The notes under the pieces are model-generated. The model saw nothing but the letters and a program-made list of their open reading frames with translations, ran no database searches and had not been told where the DNA came from. The translations under genes were made by a program, and so were the position numbers. Positions 7,390 through 51,104 of a DNA stretch of 64,000 bases are shown one piece after another; position 1 is the stretch's first letter; each line of letters opens with the position of its first letter. The DNA comes from an uncultured Thermoleophilia bacterium (GTDB taxonomy: Bacteria > Actinomycetota > Thermoleophilia > UBA2241), in assembly GCA_964533575.1 (NCBI GenBank), contig CAZHMG010000006.1, positions 51-64,050 of the forward strand. The letters are read 5' to 3'.

Positions 7390-8637
7390 ATGCGATCCTT
7401 CCTGATCAGGGAGCGCCTGAGGCGCGCGTTCGTGTGGATCGGCGTCGCGTTGCTGTCCACGGCCGCGCTCGCCGCCTGTGGTTCGACCAGCGACAGCGAA
7501 ACCACGATCTCGCTCCCAGTCCAGGAAGCGGTCACGACTGCTGAGGCCCAAGCGATGTTCGACGAGGCCGCTCGAGCACTGCACAGCCGGGACCTCTCCG
7601 CATATCGCGCCGCCGTGCCGGCTGAACGCGAAGCAGTGCGGCGCTCCCTCAGCCAGATCTATCGCCGCCTCTCGCCGCTCCCGTGGGACTCATTCGCGTT
7701 TGTCGTGACGCCCGTCGCGGGCCGTGAAGAGCAGTTCGCGGTCAAGGCGGTTGGACGGCTCGGCGGCGCCGGCCCGCCAGACCGGATAGGCGCTTTTCGC
7801 ATCTTCCTTATGCAGCGCAATGGAGACGGGGTGATCGCCGTCGCCGACGAGACGCCCCTGGACGCTCGCCGACAGTACCTCATGGCCTTCAGCGATCCCG
7901 TTGCCGTACGCGCCAACGACCTGGTTGTCGTGGCCGATCGCGCGACGATCGGGCGGGCGGAGTCGCTGGCCGCAGCGGGTCTGACTGCGCGGAAACGGCT
8001 GAAGACGGTCCTGGGCATCGCGTCTCGTGAGCCCGTCTTCGTGGCGTTGTACTCCTCGGCCGACCAGCTCCGCGACGCGCTGGGCGGCGGGCCGTCAGAG
8101 CAGCGAATCAAGTTCTTCTCCAGCCCTCCGCCGCGCCTGAGTTCGGCTCCTTGGCGCACCCGCGACATCGGCGTCCTTGCCCCCACCCTGGAAGGGACGG
8201 CCGACTGGATGCCGCTGATGCTGGCCCACGAGCTGACCCACGCCTACACGGTTCGCTGGTTCAAGAACACGGAGCATGCGCCGACACTCCTGCTTGAGGG
8301 GCTGGCGACAGCGGTCGAGGGTGACCGTGATTTCGCGCCGCTGCGCCAGGAGGTCAGCACGGGCAACAAGGTCTGGCCTCTCGCAGAGACGCTGGCGACA
8401 GGCAGCCTGTGGATGGGCAGCTCAACGGAGGAGGTTCACCTCGCCTACCTCGAGGGCAGTTCCCTCGTCCAGTACGTGATCGATCGGTGGGGCTTGCCGA
8501 AGGTGAAGCCCTTCTTCGTCGCGATCGCCGATTCGGATCTGACGAGGAACGAGCTGGACAAGGCCTGCCGGGAGATACTGGAGATGAGCTGGGCAGAGTT
8601 CTACCGCGGTTGGAAGGCCTACGTGCTCACGTTGTGA
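7390..8637 (+). CDS. Lipoprotein with a C-terminal HExxH (peptidase MA/gluzincin-like) domain
   Basis: Signal peptide with lipobox LAAC, then HELTHAY followed by LLEGLA. TACAAT (7378-7383) lies 6 nt before the ATG. Confidence 0.7.
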   Translation: MRSFLIRERLRRAFVWIGVALLSTAALAACGSTSDSETTISLPVQEAVTTAEAQAMFDEAARALHSRDLSAYRAAVPAEREAVRRSLSQIYRRLSPLPWDSFAFVVTPVAGREEQFAVKAVGRLGGAGPPDRIGAFRIFLMQRNGDGVIAVADETPLDARRQYLMAFSDPVAVRANDLVVVADRATIGRAESLAAAGLTARKRLKTVLGIASREPVFVALYSSADQLRDALGGGPSEQRIKFFSSPPPRLSSAPWRTRDIGVLAPTLEGTADWMPLMLAHELTHAYTVRWFKNTEHAPTLLLEGLATAVEGDRDFAPLRQEVSTGNKVWPLAETLATGSLWMGSSTEEVHLAYLEGSSLVQYVIDRWGLPKVKPFFVAIADSDLTRNELDKACREILEMSWAEFYRGWKAYVLTL

Positions 8638-8722
8638 AGCACGCGCGGCCGCGTCTCTGGTTGCGCTTCCGCCTGTAAAGGGGTACACGGTATGGTGGAG
8701 TATTCCTCGGGAAGGAGACGGC

Positions 8723-10051
8723 ATGAGGTGGTCGAGAAGACGCAGTGGAATCCTCGTGGCGCCCGTGATCGTCGCGATCGCCCTGATTGTGGGCGTCGGC
8801 TCAGTCGCCGGGGCCGGCTCGAGTGGGACCCTCCCTCAAATGGCTCCGGAAGAGATCTTGGCCACCATGGCCCAGAGCGACCTGTCGTCGCTGAGCGTCA
8901 GTGGCGAGATCTCTTGGCGGAACGATCTTTTCGGAACCATGGAGATGCCGTCTGACCTCGCCCAGATCCCAGCCCAGTCGCCGCTGCTGAGCAGCGGCTC
9001 GGGGCGGTTGTGGGCCAGCCGGGACGGCGTACGCATCGAGTCTCAGGGGAGCGGCGGCGACGAGATCGCGACCGTCAGCAGGGCGTCGCGAACGGCGTGG
9101 GTATTCGACTCCGCCGCGAACACCGCTCGCCGATACGAACTGACGGGCGAAGAGATGACGTCTCCGTCGTCGTCCCCATCCGCCGGCGCGACCCTCGCGC
9201 CGGTGATGGCGAAGGCATGGCTCCAGCGCCTGTCCCTCTACGCGACCGTGGAGGTTGCGGGTCAGGAGGCGGTGGCAGGACGTTCGGCGTATCTTCTGCG
9301 CATGACGCCGCTCAGCGACGACACTGCGCTTGGGTACGTCCAGGCGGCTGTCGATGGCGAAACCATGCTACCGCTGCGGCTGGAGGTATTCGCGCGAGGC
9401 TATGCGCAGCCGACTCTTCGTCTCGGCTTCGACACCATCTCGTACGCGGACGTCGACGCGTCGCTCTTCGAGTTCACTCCGCCGGACGGCACCGACGTCA
9501 AGACGAAGACGATCGACCCATCGAAGATGCGCGCCGACGGAGAAAGAGATGTGGACGCGGGGAGCAGAGCGGGGGCGCGAAACGAGACCGACAAGGCGCG
9601 CAGAGAGCTGGCGCGCCGTGCGTTGCTCACCATGGAGCAGGCGCAGCGCCTGGTCGACTACGATCTGGCCCGGGCGCGTGACTACGCCGCTCGCCCCTTC
9701 CGCTGGGCGTATGTCTTCGCTGATGAGGGACCGCTGACGGCGCGGGGCGAGGCGCTCTTGACGATGGCTGGGCAAGACGAGACAACTGGGCTCGGCCGCG
9801 TGACGGCTCTTCTTTACGGCTCGGGCTTCGGCGCCATCACGTTGCTGCAGACGAGGACGACGCCGGAACTGACCGAGCAACTGAAGCAGCTACCCGTACT
9901 CGTGCAGACAGAGGCGGGCGGCAGCTCCGTCCGTTCGATCTTCACGCCGCTTGGGGGTGCCGTCGTCTGGCAGCAGGGTGAAACGACGCTCCTCGCTGCC
10001 GGACTGGTGACCCAGACGGAGCTCGAGGAGTTCGTGGACGCGGTGCGTTGA
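8723..10051 (+). CDS. Secreted LolA/RseB-fold-like (DUF2092-like) protein
   Basis: N-terminal signal/TM segment, beta-rich repeats (GRLWAS..GVRIE, VAGRSAYLLRMTP, VDGETMLPLRLEV, FEFTPPDG). GGAAGGAG RBS. Confidence 0.6.
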   Translation: MRWSRRRSGILVAPVIVAIALIVGVGSVAGAGSSGTLPQMAPEEILATMAQSDLSSLSVSGEISWRNDLFGTMEMPSDLAQIPAQSPLLSSGSGRLWASRDGVRIESQGSGGDEIATVSRASRTAWVFDSAANTARRYELTGEEMTSPSSSPSAGATLAPVMAKAWLQRLSLYATVEVAGQEAVAGRSAYLLRMTPLSDDTALGYVQAAVDGETMLPLRLEVFARGYAQPTLRLGFDTISYADVDASLFEFTPPDGTDVKTKTIDPSKMRADGERDVDAGSRAGARNETDKARRELARRALLTMEQAQRLVDYDLARARDYAARPFRWAYVFADEGPLTARGEALLTMAGQDETTGLGRVTALLYGSGFGAITLLQTRTTPELTEQLKQLPVLVQTEAGGSSVRSIFTPLGGAVVWQQGETTLLAAGLVTQTELEEFVDAVR

Positions 10052-40849: not shown

Positions 40850-40949
40850 GCGAAGGCCAGGAGCGTCATGATGCCGTCGCGGTTGCGGCGATCGGACGTC
40901 CGGCTCAGCGTCTCGGGTGTCGACGCGCCGACCCTCGCCCGGCCCTCGA

Positions 40950-40978
40950 TTGACCGCCGCATGCCACGGTTGTAGCCT
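40950..40978 (+). promoter_or_regulatory. Promoter of the cob operon
   Basis: TTGACC-17 nt-TAGCCT directly upstream of the riboswitch. Confidence 0.65.
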
Positions 40979-40982
40979 TCAT

Positions 40983-41122
40983 GCGTTGTCTCTCAGCCGC
41001 TGGGAAGCCGGTGCAATGCCGGCGCTGCCCCGCAACTGTAGGCGCGGACGACCGCCGCACTCAGCCACTGTCATCGGACGGGAAGGCGCGGCCAGTAGGA
41101 CGAAGCGCGAGCCAGGACACCA
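40983..41122 (+). ncRNA. Cobalamin (B12) riboswitch
   Basis: GGGAA-GCCGGTGCAATGCCGGC-GCTGCCCCGCAACTGTA ... GCCACTG ... GGGAAGGCG ... AGCCAGGACACC. It sits upstream of corrinoid genes. Confidence 0.92.
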
Positions 41123-41165
41123 TGGCTGGGGGAGCATCGCGACAGAGCCTCGAGGGAGGGCTGCG

Positions 41166-41906
41166 GTGGGATTCGAGGATCGACTCATCCTCGTCACGGG
41201 CGGGGCCCGTAGCGGCAAGAGCAGGTATGCCGAACGGCTCACCGCCATGGTGGCGGAAGGGGCACAGGGTTCCCGCGACGGGGTGATAGAGCCATGCCGC
41301 GTCGTCTACCTGGCGACGTCCGAAACGAACGACGAGGAGATGGCGGCGCGCGTCGCCGCTCATCGTGCGTCCCGCCCTGCAGGCTGGACAACTGTCGAAT
41401 GCCCGGTCGAGGTGCCGGCAGCGCTGCGCGCCGAGACGGCCACACGGGGTCCTGCCGTCTTCCTGCTCGACTGCGTAACCTTCTGGGTGAGCAATCTCAT
41501 CTTCGCCGGTGGCGACCTTGGCGGGACGGACCCTGGCGAGGACTTCAACTACGACAAGTCCCTGCTGACGGCGCGGCAGGAGACGGAAGCGGCCAGCCGG
41601 GTGGAGCACGCCGTCGACGATCTGCTTGCGGCGCTCTCCGGCACCGGATCCACGCTGATCGCGGTGTCCAATGAAGTCGGCCTCGGCGTCGTCCCGGAGT
41701 ATCCTCTCGCGCGTCTCTATCGAGACCAGCTGGGCTGGGTGAACCAGCGCCTGGCACTCGAGGCCGAGCATGTCTACTTTCTCGTTTCTGGCCTGCCGCT
41801 CGACGTGAAACTGCTGGCGGCGCCGCTTTCCTCGCCGTCGCGGACGGCCGTCCGGCTCCGTTCGACCGAATCCCTCCCCCGACCCTCGTCCAAGGAGACC
41901 CAGTGA
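41166..41906 (+). CDS. cobU: Adenosylcobinamide kinase/adenosylcobinamide-phosphate guanylyltransferase
   Basis: LVTGGARSGKS.YAE, YLATS, EM..RV..HR, LLDCVT, VSNEVGLG, RDQLG.VNQ. GTG 41166 after GAGGGAGG. Confidence 0.93.
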   Translation: MGFEDRLILVTGGARSGKSRYAERLTAMVAEGAQGSRDGVIEPCRVVYLATSETNDEEMAARVAAHRASRPAGWTTVECPVEVPAALRAETATRGPAVFLLDCVTFWVSNLIFAGGDLGGTDPGEDFNYDKSLLTARQETEAASRVEHAVDDLLAALSGTGSTLIAVSNEVGLGVVPEYPLARLYRDQLGWVNQRLALEAEHVYFLVSGLPLDVKLLAAPLSSPSRTAVRLRSTESLPRPSSKETQ

Positions 41907-42988
41907 TCTCGCCGCTTGAGCACACCATCAGTCAGATCCGGCCGCTGGATGCCGAGGCAATGCAAGCGGCGGAGGCGCGACAGATGCAGCTCACCAAGCC
42001 CCCGAGGGCGCTTGGGCGTCTGGAATCGCTCTCCATCCGCCTTGCCGGCATCAAGGCGGTGCCGCTACCGAGAATCGAACACAAGGCCATCGCCGTCATG
42101 GCCGCGGACCACGGCGTCACCGCGGAAGGCGTGAGCGCTTTCCCGCCCGAGGTGACCCCCGCGATGGTGCTGAACTTCGCTGCCGGCGGGGCCGCCATCA
42201 ACGTGATCGGGCGCCACGTGGGTGCGCGCGTGATCGTCACGGATGTCGGCGTGAACGCCGATCTGTCCGGCACGCGCGGGGTTCGTCACAGGAAGATCCG
42301 TATGGGGACAGCCAACATGGCCGATGGTCCGGCGATGACGCGCGACGAGTGTCTCGCGGCAATCGCCGTCGGCATGGAGCTCGTCGAGGAGGAGGTGGCT
42401 GAGGGCCTCGACATCATCGCGACGGGTGAGATGGGCATCGGGAATACAACCGCAGCCTCCGCCGTGATCGCTGCTCTCACCAGCGCGCCAGTCGCACTGG
42501 TGACAGGACGCGGAACCGGCATCAGCGCGGAGGCATTGCCCGCGAAGGTGGCCGTCATCGAGCGGGCGCTCGCCGTGAATCAGCCAGATGCCGGCGACCC
42601 GGTCGACGTGCTCGCCAAGGTCGGCGGGCTGGAGATCGCCGCCATGACGGGCGTGTTCCTCGGTGGTGCCGCCCATCGAACGCCGGTCATCATGGACGGC
42701 TTCATCAGCGCGGCCGCCGCATTGGCGGCCGTCCGCCTTTGTCACGAATGCGTCGACTACATTCTCCCCAGCCACGTGAGCATCGAGATCGGGCATCAGG
42801 TAGTGCTTGACGAACTTGGCCTGACGCCCCTCTTCGATCTGCAGATGCGCCTCGGCGAGGGCACCGGCGCAGCCCTCTCGATGAGCATCATCGAGGCCGC
42901 GGCCCGCATCCTTGCCGATATGGCGACGTTTGAAAGCGCCGGAGTGGCAGGCGATCCGAACGCGGTCCACGCAGAACTCCGCAGCTGA
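41903..42988 (+). CDS. cobT: Nicotinate-nucleotide--dimethylbenzimidazole phosphoribosyltransferase
   Basis: LTKP..ALGRLE, AADHGV, GGAAIN, GEMGIGNTT, GRGTG, DGFIS, MRLGEGTGA. Confidence 0.95.
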   Translation: MISPLEHTISQIRPLDAEAMQAAEARQMQLTKPPRALGRLESLSIRLAGIKAVPLPRIEHKAIAVMAADHGVTAEGVSAFPPEVTPAMVLNFAAGGAAINVIGRHVGARVIVTDVGVNADLSGTRGVRHRKIRMGTANMADGPAMTRDECLAAIAVGMELVEEEVAEGLDIIATGEMGIGNTTAASAVIAALTSAPVALVTGRGTGISAEALPAKVAVIERALAVNQPDAGDPVDVLAKVGGLEIAAMTGVFLGGAAHRTPVIMDGFISAAAALAAVRLCHECVDYILPSHVSIEIGHQVVLDELGLTPLFDLQMRLGEGTGAALSMSIIEAAARILADMATFESAGVAGDPNAVHAELRS

Positions 42989-43006: not shown

Positions 43007-43858
43007 ATGGAGGACGGCGCCGAGAATATGCGACCAGACGGGCTCGACAGCGGAGCCGCGCCCGCGCATGAGTGGGCCGGCGGCCGCGTCAGACACGCCA
43101 CCCTCGCGGTTACGTTTCTGACCGGCATTCCGCTGCGGCAGCGAGGCGAGTCGCGTCCTGCCGACCTGTGGCGCAGCATGGGCTGGTACCCGCTCGTGGG
43201 CCTGATGCTCGGCGCCGCGGCATGGGGAGCCTACTCGATCCTCATCGTGATTCTGCCGGGCCTGGTGGCCGCCGCCACCGTGGTTCTTCTGCTCGAGGTC
43301 GTCACGCGCGGCCTGCACATGGATGGGCTCATGGACACGGCGGACGGTCTGTTCAGCGGTGCACCCCGTGATCGCGCTCTGGAAATCATGAAGGACAGCC
43401 ACGCCGGCGCCATGGGCGTTCTCGCTGCGATCCTGGTCGTCACGCTGAAGATCACAGCCTTGGGCTCGCTGGCCGGTCCGGACGCCGCGCTTCCCCTGAT
43501 CGCGGGGTGGGCGATTGCGCGAGCGCTGCCCCCGCTGGACGTGTACATTTGGCCGTATGCGAGGCCGGCTGGCACTGGTGAGGCTTTCACCAGGGAGCGG
43601 ACACTGGGCCCGGTCGCGCTGGCAGGTGGGTTCGTCGCGCTCGCGCTCGTTCTGGCCGGGGTCCTGGCCTCGGGGATCGGTGGCGCGGGCAGCTGGTGGG
43701 GCGGGATTGTCATGGCGGGGGCGTGTCTTGCGGTGGTCCTCGGCGTGCATGTCGTCGTCGCGAAGCGCCTCGGTGGCTTGACTGGCGACGTCTACGGCAT
43801 GGGCGTCACGCTGGCCGAGACGATCGCGCTCGTTGTCGGTTGCGCTCTGGCGCAGTGA
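43007..43858 (+). CDS. cobS: Adenosylcobinamide-GDP ribazoletransferase (cobalamin synthase)
   Basis: FLT.IP, TRGLHMDGLMDTADG, IMKDS.AGAMG, GGLTGDVYG. The start may be ATG 43028. Confidence 0.93.
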   Translation: MEDGAENMRPDGLDSGAAPAHEWAGGRVRHATLAVTFLTGIPLRQRGESRPADLWRSMGWYPLVGLMLGAAAWGAYSILIVILPGLVAAATVVLLLEVVTRGLHMDGLMDTADGLFSGAPRDRALEIMKDSHAGAMGVLAAILVVTLKITALGSLAGPDAALPLIAGWAIARALPPLDVYIWPYARPAGTGEAFTRERTLGPVALAGGFVALALVLAGVLASGIGGAGSWWGGIVMAGACLAVVLGVHVVVAKRLGGLTGDVYGMGVTLAETIALVVGCALAQ

Positions 43859-43875: not shown

Positions 43876-44607
43876 ATGAGACTCTATCTTGTGAGGCACG
43901 GAGCCTCGACGGGAAACACTCCGGGGAATCTTCTCGGGCATGCGCCTCATCCGCTCACTCCCGTCGGTATGGTCCAAGCCCGCGCCGTGGCCGCGCGTTT
44001 GGCGCCGCTGGGACCGATGCCGGTCTATTGCAGCGACCTTCTGCGGGCGCGCCAGACCGCGGAGTGCATCGCCGCCGTGTGGCCGTCCGCGTTGCCGGGA
44101 GAAGCGGACGGCGTCGCTGTTCTGCCCTTGGACGACCCAAGACTTCGGGAGCTCGACCTCGGCCGTTTCGAGGGACGCTCGTGGGACGAGTTCCTCGGCG
44201 ACGAGGAGTTGAATGCGGCGATGATCGCCGACCCGCTTCACACTGCGTTGCCTGGCGGCGAGTCACTGGCGCAGATGAAGGAGCGCGTCCTCGCAGCGAT
44301 CGACGACATCGTCGCCCGTCACGCCGCTGAGGCCGGCACACCTCCGCCCTCGACGCGGGCTTCGGTTCCGCTCGGTGCTCTCACTCCGGCCGGGTCTGAT
44401 GTCGCGGTCTGTGTCGTCGCTCACGACGGCCCCCTCAGAGTCATCCTGAACCACTTCCTTGGGGTGCTGCCCGAGAAGTGGTGGGCGCTGACGACAACGC
44501 ACGGAGGCCTTTCGATGCTCGAGTGGTCGAACGGCTGGGTGAACGTCCGCTTCGTGAACGGGACCAGCCACCTTGCAGGTGTCGGCGGGAAGACCAGCTC
44601 GTCATGA
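43876..44607 (+). CDS. cobC: Histidine phosphatase, probable alpha-ribazole phosphatase
   Basis: LYLVRHG, SDLLRARQTA, LRELDLG.FEG, PGGES, VAHDG. Located inside the cob operon. Confidence 0.8.
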   Translation: MRLYLVRHGASTGNTPGNLLGHAPHPLTPVGMVQARAVAARLAPLGPMPVYCSDLLRARQTAECIAAVWPSALPGEADGVAVLPLDDPRLRELDLGRFEGRSWDEFLGDEELNAAMIADPLHTALPGGESLAQMKERVLAAIDDIVARHAAEAGTPPPSTRASVPLGALTPAGSDVAVCVVAHDGPLRVILNHFLGVLPEKWWALTTTHGGLSMLEWSNGWVNVRFVNGTSHLAGVGGKTSSS

Positions 44608-45551
44608 TGCTCGCGCCGTACGATTGGCCGATGGCGCTTGCGATGGTGCTGCTCGCAGGCGTGCTCGACGTCGCCTTTGGCGAACCGCCGGCCCGTCTTC
44701 ATCCCGTGGTCTGGCTGGGGCGGCTGATCGGCGCCATCGAAGCGCGGCGGCCGCACTGCAGGCCGCGCCAGGAGCTTGCCTACGGCGTCCTCATCGTGGT
44801 CGTCGTGGTTTCCGTCTCCGTCGCCGCGGGCCTGTTGCTCGTCGTCGTGATGAGGTGGCTGCCGTGGTTCTTTGCGCTACCGCTGGGCGCCGTCATTCTC
44901 AAGACCACCTTCTCCCTCCGAGGGCTGGTCGCGGCGGCCAACGAGGTACGGCGCGCCCTCGTCGGCGACCTCGACGCTGCTCGTGCCAGCCTTGTCGCGC
45001 TGGTGAGCCGGGACCGCGAGCTGGACTCCCCAGGCATCGTCTCTGCCACTGTCGAATCTCTTGCGGAGAACCTCGTCGACAGCGTCGTCTCGCCGTTGCT
45101 GTACTTCGCGCTGTTCGGTCTGCCGGGAGCGCTTGCTTACCGCGCCGTCAACACGATGGACGCGATGATCGGCTACCGGGGCGAGTACGAGTTCGTCGGC
45201 AAAGCGGCAGCGCGTTCGGATGACGTCCTCAACTGGATCCCGGCGCGCCTCACGGGGCTGCTGCTCGTGGCCTTGGCCTCGGTGCGTGGCACGGCGCGGA
45301 TCGCATGGACAACACTGCGCAGCCAGCGGCATCTCTCCGACAGCCCGAACAAGCTCTGGACGATTGCCCCGATGGCAGGCGCCCTGCGGGTGCGGCTGTG
45401 TCGCCCCGGATCGTATGCGGTCGGTCAACCCGTTCGTCCCCTCACCACAGCCGTCATCGGCGAGGCGGCTGCCTTGGTCTGGGCTGGCGGCGGGATCGTC
45501 ATCAGCGCCGCCGCCGCGCTCTCCGCCTTCGTCGCTTGGGCAGTGTGGTGA
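44604..45551 (+). CDS. cbiB: Adenosylcobinamide-phosphate synthase
   Basis: D..FGEPP..LHPVVWLG, ARASL..LVSRD, ESLAEN..D, YRAVNTMDAMIGY, DD.LNWIPARL, SPN. Confidence 0.93.
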   Translation: MMLAPYDWPMALAMVLLAGVLDVAFGEPPARLHPVVWLGRLIGAIEARRPHCRPRQELAYGVLIVVVVVSVSVAAGLLLVVVMRWLPWFFALPLGAVILKTTFSLRGLVAAANEVRRALVGDLDAARASLVALVSRDRELDSPGIVSATVESLAENLVDSVVSPLLYFALFGLPGALAYRAVNTMDAMIGYRGEYEFVGKAAARSDDVLNWIPARLTGLLLVALASVRGTARIAWTTLRSQRHLSDSPNKLWTIAPMAGALRVRLCRPGSYAVGQPVRPLTTAVIGEAAALVWAGGGIVISAAAALSAFVAWAVW

Positions 45552-45554
45552 TCG

Positions 45555-46637
45555 GTGCGCAGAGTCGCTGCTGCGGTGCACGGCGCCGTCGATCCGCAAG
45601 CGCTGCTCTCCGAGGGCGTGAGCCCCGAGGACATCATTGATTTCAGCTCCAATCAGGCCCCCGCCGGTATCGCCGCGGAGGTCGCGAGGGCCGTGCGGGC
45701 CGCCAGGTTCGACGCCTACCCGGATCCCCGAGCCTTCGACTTCTGCAGGGCGGCGGCTGCCCGTCACGGCGTGGGCGAGAGTTGTGTGGTGGCAGGCAAC
45801 GGTACGACGGAGCTGATTCGGCTCATTGCACAGCTCACACTCGGACCCGGCGATGTCGCAATGTCGCTGGCGCCTTCGTTCGGCGAGTACGTGGTCGCGA
45901 CGGCGCTCACGGGCGCTCGCCTGTCCGAAGTGCGACTCGTGAGCACTGGTGCCGGCGACGGCTTTCACTACGAAAGCGGCGCCGTCGCGGCGGCGCTAGA
46001 GGAGATGGCGCCGCCTCTCTGCTGGATCTGCTCCCCAAACAACCCCACCGGCGCCCTGGTGTCTCCCGCGGAGATCGTCTCTCTCGTCCGCGGGCATCCC
46101 GGAACGCTGTTCGTGCTCGACGAAGCGTACTGCGACCTGCTGGCGGAACCGCAGTGGTCAACGGAGCTCCTCGGCGGCGGCAATCTCGTCGTGCTCCGGT
46201 CGATGACCAAGGTCTGGGGTCTCGCGGGTCTACGCCTCGGGTACGCTCTCGCCCACGAAGAGGCGGCTGCGGCGCTGCGCGCCGCAGCTCCGCCTTGGAG
46301 CGTGAATGCGTGCGCTCAAGCCGCCGGCGTGGCCTGCTTCCGAGAAGCTGGACATTACCGGCGCAGCATGGACCTCTTGCTAAGCGAGCGCGATCGCATG
46401 ACAGGTGCGCTACGGCGGTCAGGCTGGATCGTTGAGCCGTCCCAAGCCGGCTTCTTCCTCGTGAGGGTGGGAGACGCCATGGCGACGAGGCGACGCCTGC
46501 TCCAGCACGGGCTCCTGCTGAGGGATTGCGCCTCGTTCGGCCTGCCTGACTGTCTGCGGCTCAGTCCTCGCGGTCCTGGCGATAACGACCGCCTCCTCGC
46601 CGCCTTCGCCACGCTGCACCCGGCCACGTACCACTGA
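45555..46637 (+). CDS. cobD: L-threonine-O-3-phosphate decarboxylase (PLP, HisC-like)
   Basis: VHGA, DFSSN, YPD, GNGTTELI, CSPNNPTG, DEAY, LRSMTK.WGLAGLRLGY. Located in the cob operon. Confidence 0.82.
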   Translation: MRRVAAAVHGAVDPQALLSEGVSPEDIIDFSSNQAPAGIAAEVARAVRAARFDAYPDPRAFDFCRAAAARHGVGESCVVAGNGTTELIRLIAQLTLGPGDVAMSLAPSFGEYVVATALTGARLSEVRLVSTGAGDGFHYESGAVAAALEEMAPPLCWICSPNNPTGALVSPAEIVSLVRGHPGTLFVLDEAYCDLLAEPQWSTELLGGGNLVVLRSMTKVWGLAGLRLGYALAHEEAAAALRAAAPPWSVNACAQAAGVACFREAGHYRRSMDLLLSERDRMTGALRRSGWIVEPSQAGFFLVRVGDAMATRRRLLQHGLLLRDCASFGLPDCLRLSPRGPGDNDRLLAAFATLHPATYH

Positions 46638-46694
46638 CAGGCGCCGGTTCACTGCTCTCACCGCGCCCAAGCGAAGTCCGAGCGCTGGCCTGCA

Positions 46695-46724
46695 TTGACG
46701 CTCAGCTGTTCGGGTTGATAGTCT
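46695..46724 (+). promoter_or_regulatory. Promoter of the fur-DUF71-btu operon
   Basis: TTGACG-18 nt-TAGTCT with an extended TGn motif. Confidence 0.6.
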
Positions 46725-46734
46725 CTCTCAAAGA

Positions 46735-46755
46735 GAATGAGAAACGTTCTCATTC
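46735..46755. promoter_or_regulatory. Fur-box-like operator
   Basis: Perfect palindrome GAATGAGAA-ACG-TTCTCATTC between the promoter and the fur start. It resembles the AATGATAATCATTATCATT Fur-box pattern. Confidence 0.75.
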
Positions 46756-46773
46756 CGAGAAGGAAGGCCGGAT

Positions 46774-47211
46774 GTGAGCGGAGTGATGCCGCAGGATATC
46801 GAGGAACTGTTCCGCTGCAAGGGCATCCCGTTCACCCGGCAGCGTCACTTGATCTGGGAGTACTTCGCCGCCGGCGATCGGGCGGCTACGATCGCCGAGG
46901 CGGCAGAGGCTCTGCGCGACTCCGATGTCGGTCAAGCCACTGTCTACCGTACCGTGACCCTTCTCTCAGACCTTGGTCTGCTGGCCCGAGTTCAGGATCG
47001 CGGCGGGCAAATCTGCTACACCGCGCCGCCCATCGGCCACAGCCACCCACTCGTCTGCGGGATCTGCCGTCGCGTTGTTCGTTTCGACGGCGACGGCGAT
47101 GTCGCGGCACTGGAAGAGCATCTGTCCGCAACGACGGGCTTCTCCATCTATGGCCACCATCTCGAGGTGTACGGCATCTGCCCTGACTGTCGCGAAGCGA
47201 ACGAGCGATGA
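46774..47211 (+). CDS. Fur-family transcriptional regulator (atypical metal sites)
   Basis: T.QR..I, VGQATVYRT..LL, HSHPLVCGIC, GHHLEVYGICPDC. Confidence 0.9.
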   Translation: MSGVMPQDIEELFRCKGIPFTRQRHLIWEYFAAGDRAATIAEAAEALRDSDVGQATVYRTVTLLSDLGLLARVQDRGGQICYTAPPIGHSHPLVCGICRRVVRFDGDGDVAALEEHLSATTGFSIYGHHLEVYGICPDCREANER

Positions 47212-47912
47212 CGGAAGGGGAGCTGAAGGGCAGACGATTCTTCTGTTCGTGGAGCGGCGGTAAGGACGCGTGTCTCGCGCTGCATCGGGCCGTTGCCGCC
47301 GCGGGCAGGCCTGTCGCTCTCCTGTGCATGCTGCAGGAGGACGGCGTGTCGAGCCGCGGTCACGGCCTGCCGCTGAGCGTCCTTGAAGCCCAGGCGGCGG
47401 CACTCGGGCTTCCGCTCATGACGAGGGCGACGAGCTGGGCTGAGTACGAACGACACTTCCTCGATGCCGTGCGGGAGCTTCGCGCCCAAGGCGTTGAAGC
47501 CGGCGTCTTCGGTGACATCGACCTGCAGGAGCATCGCGACTGGGTGGAGGCTGTGTGTGCCGAGGTGGGACTGTCCTGCCATCTGCCGTTGTGGCATGAG
47601 CCGCGGCGGCGGCTCGTGGAGGAACTCATCAGCTCCGGCGTATCCGCCACCGTCGTCGCTGTCGATGCCTCCAGGCTCGGCGAAGAGTTCCTTGGCCGAA
47701 CCGTCGACTCGGCGCTCGTCGCCGACCTTGTCGCCTCCGGCGCAGACGTCTGCGGCGAGGAAGGCGAGTATCACACCGTGGTGACGACCGCGCCTCTCTT
47801 TCGAGCGCCTGTTTCTCTGCGCTGGCATGGCCACGAGCAGCGCGACGGTCATTGGGTCCTGAGATTTGATTCCGTTCATTCAACAGATCGTCGAGGGGGT
47901 TCCGATTCATGA
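47208..47912 (+). CDS. DUF71/diphthine--ammonia ligase-like PP-loop ATP pyrophosphatase
   Basis: SWSGGKDA, SRGHG, QA.ALGLP, VFGDID, PLW, FLGR, D.CGEEGEYHT.V. Confidence 0.88.
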   Translation: MTEGELKGRRFFCSWSGGKDACLALHRAVAAAGRPVALLCMLQEDGVSSRGHGLPLSVLEAQAAALGLPLMTRATSWAEYERHFLDAVRELRAQGVEAGVFGDIDLQEHRDWVEAVCAEVGLSCHLPLWHEPRRRLVEELISSGVSATVVAVDASRLGEEFLGRTVDSALVADLVASGADVCGEEGEYHTVVTTAPLFRAPVSLRWHGHEQRDGHWVLRFDSVHSTDRRGGSDS

Positions 47913-48877
47913 ACGTGCTGCGCCTGCGTCGCCCAACCATCCGCGTCATTGTCCTGCTGGCAGCTCTCGCCCTGATCGCTGCCGCCGCCCTCGTCTCAGG
48001 CGGGTGTGGGGCGAGTGATGCGGCCGGCTTGAGTCCTTCTCCATCTGCCTCATCCGGCCCCATCACCGTGACCGATGACGGGGGCGAAGAAGTCACGCTT
48101 GCGGAGCCTGCCGAGCGCGTTGTCAGCCTCGCTCCCGCCAATACGGAGATGGCATACGCCATCGGCGGCGGGGACAAGATGGTGGGCGGCACCAGCTATG
48201 ACGACTACCCGGAAGATGCGAAGGCGTTGCCCAAGATCGGCGACTTCTCCAGCCCGAGCACTGAGCGCATTGTTGCGATGAAGCCCGACCTCGTGCTGGC
48301 GGCTGGCGGCATCCAAGCCGGCCTCCGCAGCAAATTGGAGAAGCTCGGCATGGAGGTGTATGTCATAGACCCCTCCACCTACGAAGCTGCGGTAGACGAC
48401 GTCCGTGAGCTCGGGCAGCTCATGGGTGTACAGGCTCAAGCCGAACAGGTCGCGCAAGACATGGAAGCCGCGGCGGTCGACGTGACGGCGAAGGTGGGAT
48501 CTCTCGACAAGGCGGTGACGTTCGTGGAGATCTACAGCCAGCCTCTCATGACCGCTGGCTCAGATTCTTTCATCGCCGACCTCGTGGCTCGCGCAGGAGG
48601 CGTCAATCTGGGAACCTCCGCAGGCCCGGGCTACCCGACGTTCAGCAGCGAAACCCTGATCACTGAGGACCCAGCCGTCTACATCGCCGTCTCCGGGGCG
48701 CAGAGCACACCGGGGGAGATCGCCGACAGACCTGGGTACGCGGGCTTGAGCGCCGTCAAGAACGAACGCGTCTACGTTATCGAGGACAACCTCATCGCGC
48801 GGCCTGGTCCGCGGCTGGCGGAAGGTCTGCAGCAGCTCGCCCAGATGATTCATCCAGAGGCGTATCAGGCCCAGTGA
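47909..48877 (+). CDS. Cobalamin/iron-chelate ABC substrate-binding lipoprotein (BtuF-like)
   Basis: Lipobox SGGC, VTDDGG, RVVSLAPANTE, E.IVAMKPDLV, RPGPRL. Confidence 0.88.
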   Translation: MNVLRLRRPTIRVIVLLAALALIAAAALVSGGCGASDAAGLSPSPSASSGPITVTDDGGEEVTLAEPAERVVSLAPANTEMAYAIGGGDKMVGGTSYDDYPEDAKALPKIGDFSSPSTERIVAMKPDLVLAAGGIQAGLRSKLEKLGMEVYVIDPSTYEAAVDDVRELGQLMGVQAQAEQVAQDMEAAAVDVTAKVGSLDKAVTFVEIYSQPLMTAGSDSFIADLVARAGGVNLGTSAGPGYPTFSSETLITEDPAVYIAVSGAQSTPGEIADRPGYAGLSAVKNERVYVIEDNLIARPGPRLAEGLQQLAQMIHPEAYQAQ

Positions 48878-49869
48878 TCGGGCGGGCACGCATTGGGGGC
48901 GGGCTTGGCCTTGCCCTTGCGGTCCTTCTGTTTGTGGCGTGTCTGATAGCGTCACTCCTGTTCGGCCCGGCCTCGCTACCGCTCGGTGAGCTCGTCGAGC
49001 ACATCCGTACGGGGCCGGGCGCGGACACCGCGGGGTCTGTCATCTTCTGGGAGATCCGCCTGCCGCGCGTTCTGCTGGCGTTCCTGGTAGGCGCGTCACT
49101 CTCGGTGGCCGGCGTTATCCTGCAGGATCTGTTTCTGAATCCGCTCACCGACCCGTACGTCACGGGGGTGTCCTCGGGGGCGGCGCTCGGGGCCACTATC
49201 GGCATCGTCTTGAAGCTCGCGCCGCTGCCCTGGGTCACGGTGCTCGCTCTGGCCGGCGGTTTCGCGACGCTCGCCGTGGTCTGGGTGGCGGCCCGGCGCC
49301 GTGGCAGGATCGACATCTACGTCCTGCTGCTGGCTGGAGTAACCATTTCCTACCTGGTCACGGCCGCCATCAGCGTGATGATGATTCGTGCGGGCGAGGA
49401 CATGTACGCGATCGTCTACTGGCTCCTTGGAAGCTTCAGCGGGCGTACCTGGCAGGAGGTGCAGGTCGCTCTGTTCGTCCTGCCGTTCCTGGTCGTGCCG
49501 TTCTTCTTCCTTGACGAGATGGACATTCTCCTGCAGGGGGAGAAGCGGGCCCTCGAGCTGGGTGTCGAGGTCGAGCGGGCCAAGCGCATTCTGCTGGTCA
49601 CGGCGGCGGCACTCACGGCGATTGCCGTGAGCGTGTCCGGCATCATCGGCTTTGTCGGCCTCGTCGTACCTCATATCGTACGGCTCCTGGTGGGCCCGGG
49701 GCACCGCCGCCTGATTCCCATCGCCCTGCTGGGCGGCGCCGCGCTGATGGGAATCGCCGACCTGTTGTCCCGCACGATGTTTGCGCCGACAGAGGTACCG
49801 GTCGGCGTCGTCACGACGTTCGTCGGCGCGCCGCTGTTCGTCTACCTGCTGCGGAGAAGGCGGGCATGA
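48874..49869 (+). CDS. FecCD/BtuC-family permease
   Basis: IRLPRV, NPL.DPY..GVSSGA, GIIGFVGLVVPH, EVPVGVVT..GAP.F. Confidence 0.92.
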   Translation: MIGRARIGGGLGLALAVLLFVACLIASLLFGPASLPLGELVEHIRTGPGADTAGSVIFWEIRLPRVLLAFLVGASLSVAGVILQDLFLNPLTDPYVTGVSSGAALGATIGIVLKLAPLPWVTVLALAGGFATLAVVWVAARRRGRIDIYVLLLAGVTISYLVTAAISVMMIRAGEDMYAIVYWLLGSFSGRTWQEVQVALFVLPFLVVPFFFLDEMDILLQGEKRALELGVEVERAKRILLVTAAALTAIAVSVSGIIGFVGLVVPHIVRLLVGPGHRRLIPIALLGGAALMGIADLLSRTMFAPTEVPVGVVTTFVGAPLFVYLLRRRRA

Positions 49870-51104
49870 GCGGCGCACCGTCGACGGCCCTGATCTCCGT
49901 TCGTGATCTGAGCTTCGCCTACGACGCGCGTCCGGTCCTCAAGCGCGTCTCGTTCGAGGCCGAGGCGGGCGACTTCGTCGGCGTGGTCGGTCCCAACGGG
50001 AGCGGGAAGAGCACCCTGCTCGACCTGATTGACGGTGTGCTCAGACCGGCGTCGGGCCAGGTGGAGGTCGCCGGACGGCCCACGGATGCCTACAGGAGAC
50101 GCGACATGGCGCGTCAGGTCGCCCTGGTCCCACAGCATTTCGCCCTCGAGTTCGACCTCGGCGTCCGAGAAGTCGTGGAGATGGGCGCGTACTGCCGCGC
50201 CGGGGAGGGCGGTTCGCAGGACGAGGCTGAGCAGATGCTTGCGCGGCTAGGTGTGAGCGGGCTGATCGATCGCCGCTTCTCCGAGCTCTCGGGCGGCGAG
50301 AAACAACTCGTCGTCCTCGCCCAGGCCCTGATGCAGGGGGCGCCTCTGCTGCTGCTCGACGAACCCGCCTCCGCGCTCGACGTCTCCCACCAGCTACGAC
50401 TGTTCGACCTGCTCAAGAAGCTCAACGCGGACGGCCTGACGGTCGTGTGCGTGCTCCACGACCTGAACCTCGCTCTCCACTACTTCGACCGGCTGCTCGT
50501 CTTCTCTGATGGCGAGGTGGCGGCATATGGTCCTCCCGAGGTGGTGCTGCGGCCGGAGATCGTGGAGGCCGTTTACGGCATACGGGCGTTCCTGCACAGA
50601 CATGCCGGCCGCACGTATCTGACATTCTCGCCTCGCGCTCGGGGTGAGCGCCGGGGCCGGGTGCATGTCATCTGCGGGGGCGGCACCGGGTCTGGCCTGA
50701 TGCGCGACTTGGTAGACGCCGGATACGACGTATCCGCCGGCGTCCTCAACGCTCTCGATACCGATGAGGAGACAGGGCGGGAGCTAGGCTTGCCGATGGC
50801 CGTCGAAGCGCCGTTCTCGCCCATCGGCGATGAGACGCACCGCGAGAATCTGGCGCTCATCGACGCCGCGGAAGTCGTGGTCGTCGCGGCCGTTCCCGTG
50901 AGCCACGGCAACGAGCGCAATCTCGTCGCGGCCCTGCAGGCGGCCGCCGCCGGCAAGCCGGTCTGGGTCGCATCCGGCATTTTCGACAGTGACTTCACAG
51001 GGATGACCGCGAGTCTGGCGACTGCCGGCGTGCAGTTCTATGGCCTGCAGTCCGAACTGTTCTCTGCGCTGAAGAGCCGCCCGGATCAGTGCTATCCGAG
51101 CTGA
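49866..51104 (+). CDS. BtuD/FecE-type ATPase with a roughly 150 aa C-terminal extra domain
   Basis: GPNGSGKS, LSGGEKQ, LDEP...LD, LHDLN. The extension has VHVICGGG.G, SAGVL...DTD, PFSPI and GNERNL. Confidence 0.9.
   Translation: MSGAPSTALISVRDLSFAYDARPVLKRVSFEAEAGDFVGVVGPNGSGKSTLLDLIDGVLRPASGQVEVAGRPTDAYRRRDMARQVALVPQHFALEFDLGVREVVEMGAYCRAGEGGSQDEAEQMLARLGVSGLIDRRFSELSGGEKQLVVLAQALMQGAPLLLLDEPASALDVSHQLRLFDLLKKLNADGLTVVCVLHDLNLALHYFDRLLVFSDGEVAAYGPPEVVLRPEIVEAVYGIRAFLHRHAGRTYLTFSPRARGERRGRVHVICGGGTGSGLMRDLVDAGYDVSAGVLNALDTDEETGRELGLPMAVEAPFSPIGDETHRENLALIDAAEVVVVAAVPVSHGNERNLVAALQAAAAGKPVWVASGIFDSDFTGMTASLATAGVQFYGLQSELFSALKSRPDQCYPS

Follow-up and report, generated by a model that had tools for sequence, protein, structure and literature searches.

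The DUF71 locus and its host

The window analysed here, a stretch of 64,000 nucleotides (nt) covering positions 51-64,050 of the forward strand of contig CAZHMG010000006.1 (assembly GCA_964533575.1), comes from an uncultured Thermoleophilia bacterium (UBA2241), a soil actinobacterium. We confirmed in it an open reading frame at 47208-47912 on the plus strand, whose product of 234 amino acids (aa), P0001, matches the DUF71 family. The constant partners of this gene in its relatives are a BtuFCD importer and a Fur-type regulator, and DUF71 is neither a substitute for the cobyric acid synthase CobQ/CbiP nor a simple replacement for the amidohydrolase CbiZ. We tentatively propose that it would restore amide groups on imported corrinoids at the expense of ATP. 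The features of the locus are the following.

40949..41139 (+), cobalamin riboswitch aptamer at the operon head (RF00174, 88.3 bits, E 1.8e-20)
41166..41906 (+), cobU, cobinamide kinase/cobinamide-phosphate guanylyltransferase (P-loop GGARSGKS in the translation)
41903..42988 (+), cobT, nicotinate mononucleotide:dimethylbenzimidazole phosphoribosyltransferase (PF02277, E 2.5e-135; TIGR03160, 441.9 bits, over the cut-off)
43007..43858 (+), cobS, cobamide 5'-phosphate synthase (PF02654, E 4e-47)
43876..44607 (+), cobC-type alpha-ribazole phosphatase, likely start ATG 43876 (PF00300, E 2.1e-40; TIGR03162, 113 bits, under the cut-off)
44604..45551 (+), cbiB, adenosylcobinamide-phosphate synthase (PF03186, E 1.5e-81; TIGR00380, 233.2 bits against a cut-off of 165.9)
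45555..46637 (+), cobD, aminotransferase of the L-threonine-O-3-phosphate decarboxylase type (PF00155, E 2.5e-48; TIGR01140)
46695..46755 (+), promoter-like site (46695-46722), then a perfect 9-3-9 palindrome, GAATGAGAA-ACG-TTCTCATTC (46735-46755), within the cobD-fur gap
46774..47211 (+), Fur-family transcriptional regulator (PF01475, E 6.7e-14)
47208..47912 (+), DUF71, predicted PP-loop ATP pyrophosphatase of the DUF71-B12 subgroup, P0001 (PF01902; SWSGGKD at residues 14-20, GEEGEYHT at 183-190)
47909..48877 (+), BtuF-like substrate-binding protein, Peripla_BP_2, with a signal-peptide-like N terminus (PF01497, E 2.6e-38)
48874..49869 (+), BtuC-like FecCD permease (PF01032, E 1e-89; top NCBIfam match BtuC PRK09535, 280 bits)
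49866..51104 (+), BtuD-like ATP-binding cassette (ABC) ATPase (PF00005, E 5.3e-33; PRK09536, 288.8 bits, under the cut-off)

The initial annotation had described DUF71 as translationally coupled to fur and to the gene for the substrate-binding protein, and ATGA overlaps at both ends bear this out. The TGA of fur (47209-47211) overlaps the DUF71 ATG at 47208 (ATGA 47208-47211), and the DUF71 stop codon (47910-47912) overlaps the btuF ATG at 47909 (ATGA 47909-47912). Further overlaps of the same type join btuF to btuC (GTGA) and btuC to btuD (ATGA). The gene had also been placed directly after cobU-T-S-C-cbiB-cobD. This order stands, and the strand run that holds DUF71 includes cbiB, 1.7 kb upstream, but a gap of 136 nt (46638-46773) with the promoter-like site separates cobD from fur. 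The core of the palindrome recurs upstream of fur in a relative, G008 (L094:7732-7748), and the exact core was not found at the other loci compared. As a candidate operator, the palindrome may be bound by the Fur-like regulator, which would govern the corrinoid importer in place of a riboswitch.

In the upstream genes, the GTG start of cobU, 27 nt past the riboswitch, is inferred, with no Pfam scan made on exactly that start; cobU overlaps cobT by GTGA, and CobU is 65-70% identical to the syntenic CobU matches in loci L094 and L095. The likely start of cbiB, ATG 44604, overlaps the cobC stop codon (ATGA). The top NCBIfam match of CobD, TIGR01140, scored 256.9 bits, slightly below its cut-off of 290.6. 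Downstream, the top NCBIfam match of the BtuD-like ATPase is PRK09536, 'corrinoid ABC transporter ATPase'. At its C terminus this protein is extended by about 150 aa (window 50616-51104), a part of which is covered by the haloarchaeal model PRK09536, and a Pfam scan of its C-terminal 162 aa gave zero family matches.

Profile searches covered the whole assembly (2.51 Mb, 140 contigs, 95.6% complete). They found no CbiZ (PF01955, without a match in P0001 as well), no cobB/cbiA (TIGR00379) and no CbiC (PF02570) in it; the best match to cobQ (TIGR00313) scored 20 bits and lies on a different contig, and TP_methylase had one match. The absence of cbiP/cobQ and cbiZ first noted for the window therefore extends to the assembly. 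A single cobalamin riboswitch was found, the one heading the DUF71 operon, and a single gene for a FecCD-family permease, the BtuC-like gene of the same operon. A CobA/BtuR-type adenosyltransferase is present, as are 15 matches to B12-binding domains. Because neither cobQ, CbiZ nor ring synthesis was found, and given the B12-binding matches, the adenosyltransferase and the lone riboswitch and permease, the host is a corrinoid-dependent pure salvager, and what can be seen of its corrinoid uptake and assembly lies in the DUF71 operon. Its dependence on corrinoids appears heavy. Examples of the B12-binding domains are G000 C124:2624-2962, C12:39835-40173 and C14:41788-42117; several of the matches fall within open reading frames some 160-310 aa long and resemble methyltransferase corrinoid proteins.

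Assignment of P0001 to the DUF71-B12 subgroup

P0001 matched PF01902 (Diphthami_syn_2) with an E value of 1.8e-42 and 145.8 bits, its residues 14-216 corresponding to positions 6-210 of the 219 in the profile, and had no other Pfam match. The closest relatives of the gene are throughout from metagenome-assembled genomes (MAGs) of Thermoleophilia; in this sizeable and well-conserved family, more than 5,600 clusters matched P0001 at a limit of E <= 1e-5, and the top ones are 63-75% identical to it. A sequence search of the PDB returned the Dph6 proteins PF0828 and PH1257 alone. The AlphaFold2 model (predicted local distance difference test score 94.3) superimposes on the Dph6 structures 2D13 and 3RK1, the latter ATP-bound, with a template modeling score of about 0.8, and the ATP-binding residues are alike. 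The adenylate-forming first step is presumably alike too.

In contrast, identity to Dph6 in the structural alignment is about 25%, and the score against the Dph6 equivalog TIGR03679 (102.9 bits) is below the cut-off of 197.3. The GEGGEFET motif of Dph6 aligns with GEEGEYHT, so that the position of the catalytic Glu188 is occupied by His189, and the GALxSxYQR block of Dph6 is replaced by GDIDLxxHRxW. An identity as diphthine ligase was rejected on account of the TIGR03679 score and the replacement of the catalytic Glu by His; bacteria lack diphthamide (PMC3541065).

These same features place P0001 in a subgroup already described. DUF71-B12 was defined by the change of EGG[E/D]xE188 to ENGE[F/Y]H188 with the ATP-contact residues kept, namely S12, G13, G14, K15, D16, H48 and T189 in PF0828 numbering (de Crecy-Lagard et al. 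2012; PMC3541065). All ATP-site residues are present in P0001: SWSGGKD at 14-20, H52 (equivalent to PF0828 H48) and T190. Among 39 diverse homologues the PP-loop S14-D20 and H52 are invariant and T190 nearly so, and G102-D103-I104-D105-L106-x-x-H109-x-x-W112, P127-L128, R133 and G183-E184-x-G186-E187-x-H189 are invariant too. GTDB species genomes provided 80 related loci, and 79 of them have the motif GE-x-GE-[FY]-H. P0001 departs from the published signature in having EEGEYH (184-189) instead of ENGE[F/Y]H, with Asn changed to Glu and the His kept. By its sequence, it thus belongs to the DUF71-B12 subgroup within PF01902/COG2102, has an intact ATP site and is predicted to be a cytoplasmic PP-loop ATP pyrophosphatase, co-produced with the Fur-type regulator and the BtuFCD-type importer.

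With published members such as Pyrococcus furiosus PF0295 (PMC3541065), P0001 shares the domain, the PP-loop, the His in place of Glu188 and the clustering with btuFCD and cbiB. The 2012 survey found 75 of 102 DUF71-B12 members next to B12 transporters and 18 of 102 next to cbiB (PMC3541065). The subgroup and its link to B12 salvage, with which the initial annotation agreed, were therefore known already; the role in salvage is a prediction for the published members, and in a 2016 table from the laboratory of the 2012 study the entry for the subgroup still reads "function unknown, B12 salvage". New here are co-occurrence data that speak against both the CobQ-substitute and the CbiZ-equivalent readings.

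Partners of DUF71 across genomes

The order fur-DUF71-btuF-btuC-btuD was found in 20 of 20 Actinomycetota loci. The module also occurs in 21 further regions of the window's taxonomic family, all with fur except one (20/21), and the Fur-family gene that precedes DUF71 here and across the Thermoleophilia clade sets these loci apart from the published ones. Thus, the constant partners of DUF71 are the importer btuFCD and the Fur-type regulator. The module often borders on cobC, cobD or cobQ, and cob genes immediately precede it here as well as in G008, G080, G098, G138, G148, G188 and G193. Two of these genomes, G008 and G080, both from the window's genus, keep the whole cobU-T-S-C-cbiB-cobD ... 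fur-DUF71-btuFCD order of the window, and at the position of its 136-nt gap they carry a cobQ gene between cobD and fur (486 and 500 bits, over the cut-off):

L094 (G008:C1), ~7846-9318, cobQ in syntenic relative
L095 (G080:C56), 7813-9336, cobQ in syntenic relative

The difference at this junction reflects either a loss in the window's lineage or a gain in G008 and G080. Two other genomes, G038 and G178, have fragments of CobQ only, which suggests that decay of cobQ is ongoing in the window's genus.

We then considered 201 genomes of Thermoleophilia, each at least 85% complete; the co-occurrence figures are counts among kin, hence not statistics. DUF71 was found in 32 of the 37 genomes of the window's family. 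Among these 32 carriers, CbiB occurs in 26, CobQ in 19 (some fragmentary), CbiZ in 16 and CbiC, a marker of ring synthesis, in 5. The orthologous fur-DUF71-btuFCD module was verified in 15 CbiZ-positive and 4 CbiC-positive carriers (54-69% identity). Four genomes of the window's own genus have the verified module together with CbiC, CobQ and CbiB. The initial annotation had held that a separate cbiP next to full de novo synthesis would refute its reading, and close relatives, among them G008 and G080, go against it on this point. CbiB and DUF71 are found together without CobQ and CbiZ in four genomes, the window's own included. Three family members that lack DUF71 also lack CbiB, CobQ, CbiZ and CbiC, and another, G014, is a complete de novo producer.

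In two other families CbiB occurs without DUF71. The de novo producers of family f6 have CbiB in 18 of 21 genomes and DUF71 in none of the 21, and eight genomes of family f4 (G004, G046, G070, G088, G112, G118, G124 and G160) have CbiB but neither CobQ, CbiZ, CbiC nor DUF71. The latter are either salvagers that need imported cobyric acid or holders of an unrecognised enzyme that forms it. Two genomes with DUF71 and without CbiB, CobQ, CbiZ, CbiC and CobS, G168 and G020, were considered as proof that the module can occur without cobamide assembly. This argument was dropped because their copies are divergent (35% and 46% identity) and have no fur or btu genes nearby.

Among 50 diverse DUF71 carriers from across phyla, CobS was found in 36, CobQ in 27, CbiB in 27-29 (missing in 21-23) and CbiZ in 12. 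All 12 CbiZ-positive carriers are bacterial, which makes 12 of 47 diverse bacterial carriers, and a Scalinduaceae genome has the order btuF-btuC-btuD-cbiZ-DUF71. Fourteen of the 50 lack CbiZ, CobQ, CbiB and CobS altogether, and 10 of these are Chitinophagaceae. In a quick tree of the DUF71 copies, those of Chitinophagaceae form a separate supported clade with Jeongeupia and one Lentisphaeraceae copy, and its members may differ in function; the conclusions do not rest on them. The neighbours of context-less members (Algisphaera, Thermoactinomycetaceae, Lentisphaeraceae and Chitinophaga) are uninformative housekeeping genes.

Several observations concern individual loci. At six Chitinophagaceae loci (L055, L060, L061, L071 and others) a DUF6580 membrane protein is encoded directly downstream on the opposite strand, about 140 nt from DUF71; at five of the six no riboswitch was found. 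In a Lentisphaeraceae MAG, DUF71 is preceded within its strand run by a gene for a ferrochelatase fused to a major facilitator superfamily transporter (802 aa; L076:1789-4197). The DUF71 orthologue is in two pieces in G173 (L102, G173:C12) and has an in-frame TGA in G158 (G158:C1:326684-327307); these copies are possibly pseudogenes or sequencing errors. The CbiB and DUF71 matches of G044 are about 150 bp apart. Fusions of DUF71 are rare singletons and involve BtuD, BtuF, CbiB, CobT, Fur or an MoCF domain. A recurring fusion, P0131 (613 aa; 44 sequences), pairs a class-V aminotransferase domain with a DUF71 domain that is more distant (34% identity), and it probably represents a different subgroup with another substrate.

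Candidate reactions of DUF71-B12

The analysis establishes the family and subgroup membership of P0001, its fold, its intact ATP site, the structure of its operon and the phyletic patterns. PP-loop enzymes adenylate a carboxylate or a carbonyl oxygen before a nucleophile attacks the activated group. Because the ATP site is intact and the gene is coupled to uptake, we propose that DUF71-B12 may use ATP to adenylate side-chain carboxylates of imported corrinoids and convert them back into amides, a reading that we consider plausible and hold tentatively. ATP would bind in the PP-loop, a side-chain carboxylate of a freshly imported corrinoid would be adenylated, and ammonia would resolve the acyl-adenylate to restore the amide. 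The chemistry would be that of Dph6 (carboxylate + ATP + NH3 -> amide + AMP + pyrophosphate) with a different substrate. In this way, cobamides, cobinamide or corrinoids at the level of cobyric acid that are deamidated or incompletely amidated would be repaired or completed. DUF71 would thus serve as an accessory of uptake: it would not take the place of CobQ/CbiP, and CbiB would not depend on it for cobyric acid. Among the known hydrolysis products of cobalamin are its deamidated monocarboxylic acids, which act as poor or antagonistic cofactors. The narrower form of the proposal, that DUF71-B12 is an import-coupled re-amidase restoring hydrolysed acetamide or propionamide side chains of scavenged cobamides, is put forward with slightly more reserve.

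The CbiB, CobQ, CbiZ and CbiC backgrounds of DUF71 vary, and a role that acts on the corrin side chains themselves would fit all of them. The initial annotation had suggested that DUF71 amidates or repairs imported corrinoids in order to provide cobyric acid for CbiB. Its repair component survives as our leading guess, whereas the part that made DUF71 a stand-in for CobQ/CbiP does not.

A number of points weigh against re-amidation. The corrinoid as substrate, the carboxylate as target and ammonia as nucleophile are all inferred, and a literature search found no experimental characterisation of any DUF71-B12 member, in keeping with the earlier remark that the reaction is not established. The change of Glu188 to His and the invariant, subgroup-specific GDIDLxxHRxW block hint at a chemistry partly unlike that of Dph6, and the fusion search revealed no glutaminase fused to or partnered with DUF71. 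Relatives with CobQ already own an enzyme that amidates positions b, d, e and g, so that a second amidase would need a distinct substrate range. The substrate-binding protein scores about equally as BtuF and as a heme binder: in the PDB it matched the B12-binding protein 5YSC with 109 bits, Escherichia coli BtuF with 87-90 and the heme binder ShuT with 86.8, and its score of 120 bits against BtuF PRK03379 is under the cut-off. No cobalamin riboswitch was found within 10 kb of the module in ten Thermoleophilia (Actinomycetota) loci. Lastly, the His-type enzymes of the Chitinophagaceae/Jeongeupia clade are encoded where neither B12 genes nor a riboswitch lie close by (no riboswitch was found near DUF71 in 7 Chitinophaga/Jeongeupia loci), and no cobamide-assembly genes were found in the Chitinophagaceae carrier genomes.

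The hypothesis advanced in 2012 (PMC3541065) is that DUF71-B12 acts like CbiZ, making adenosylcobyric acid from adenosyl-pseudo-B12 or cobinamide, or remodels corrinoids otherwise, with re-entry through CbiB. CbiZ, an amidohydrolase of adenosylcobinamide and pseudo-B12, likewise adjoins btuFCD and cbiB in salvagers and has been proposed as the functional equivalent. The host fits such a role, since it has cbiB and cobD and no CbiZ, CobQ or ring synthesis and would need a source of cobyric acid unless this is imported. The presence of cbiB in the same operon, the proximity of the two genes in G044 and the one CbiB-DUF71 fusion are consistent with it as well. Its main support, however, was a strict anticorrelation with CbiZ in bacteria, a supporting trait of the 2012 study rather than a sequence criterion (PMC3541065). 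The host, which lacks CbiZ, conforms to it, but it appears to fail in the Thermoleophilia clade, where half of the family carriers have CbiZ, 15 of them with the verified orthologous module, and also among the diverse bacterial carriers. As CbiZ co-occurs with DUF71 in 16 of 32 relatives and adjoins it in Scalinduaceae, simple CbiZ equivalence is unlikely, although the substrate ranges of the two enzymes could differ. The diverse carriers that lack CbiB argue against this hypothesis too. The fold of CbiZ is unrelated, and CbiZ needs no ATP. A reviewer of the 2012 study remarked that an amidohydrolase role is unprecedented for a PP-loop ATPase, the ligase direction being the normal one (PMC3541065). 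The CbiZ-like role has therefore become unlikely in our estimate.

Still more doubtful is a role as helper of CbiB, in which DUF71 would act on the f-propionate of cobyric acid, adenylating it for attachment of aminopropanol or its phosphate and so providing the membrane enzyme CbiB with ATP-dependent activation. The presence of cbiB in the operon and in 26 of the 32 family carriers, the neighbouring matches in G044 and the fusion protein P0127 (CbiB-DUF71) would agree with this. Yet most CbiB-bearing genomes do without DUF71, as the f6 producers and the eight f4 genomes show, 21-23 of the 50 diverse carriers have no CbiB, and P0127 is a singleton whose CbiB part is truncated.

We regard it as similarly improbable that the cargo is not a corrinoid, with the module forming a Fur-controlled type-II importer for a different tetrapyrrole or metal chelate, such as heme, a siderophore or a cobalt or nickel complex, on which DUF71 would act. 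The Fur-family regulator at the head of the module, the ten related loci without riboswitch, the equivocal scores of the binding protein and the His-type DUF71 in genomes where cobamide-assembly genes were not found are all compatible with other cargoes. Against them stand the position of the module right after cob genes in the window and seven further genomes, its status as the lone FecCD importer of a corrinoid-dependent genome in which ring synthesis was not found, the top NCBIfam matches of permease and ATPase to corrinoid transporters, and the 2012 survey (PMC3541065), which favours the link to B12.

Least probable of all is that DUF71 replaces CobQ/CbiP, perhaps along with CbiA, by turning imported cobyrinic-acid intermediates into cobyric acid, even though the host keeps cbiB and cobD without cobQ and cbiA and amide-ligase chemistry is the family norm: cobQ shares the operon with DUF71 in G008 and G080 (cobD-cobQ-fur), which shows that the one does not substitute for the other, CobQ accompanies DUF71 in 19 of 32 family and 27 of 50 diverse carriers, and the four genomes of the same genus combine the verified module with CbiC, CobQ and CbiB. 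ATP-dependent amidation of corrin carboxylates, the reaction type first suggested for DUF71, is the work of CobQ/CbiP, which is from another superfamily (MinD-like ATPase plus GATase_3), phosphorylates in order to activate and takes glutamine, and its domain pair (CbiA-type nucleotide-binding plus GATase_3) is not present in P0001. A cobyric-acid-making stand-in for CbiP is thus unlikely, and the idea that DUF71 explains the retention of cbiB and cobD is not supported, given the eight relatives that keep CbiB without CobQ, CbiZ, CbiC or DUF71. In Salmonella, imported cobyric acid is salvaged directly through CbiB. Since CbiB-only salvagers exist and direct salvage of cobyric acid is known, keeping cbiB and cobD needs no DUF71.

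DUF71-B12 is a large family that since 2012 has been without a reaction of its own. The scavenging of B12 shapes microbial communities, and an enzyme tied to the importer without an assigned reaction is thus a real gap. The comparative data narrow this gap without closing it, and point the first assays to side-chain carboxylates of complete or near-complete corrinoids. If re-amidation proves true, DUF71-B12 would represent a new class of cofactor-damage repair, which would account for its association with the importer and not with any single assembly enzyme.

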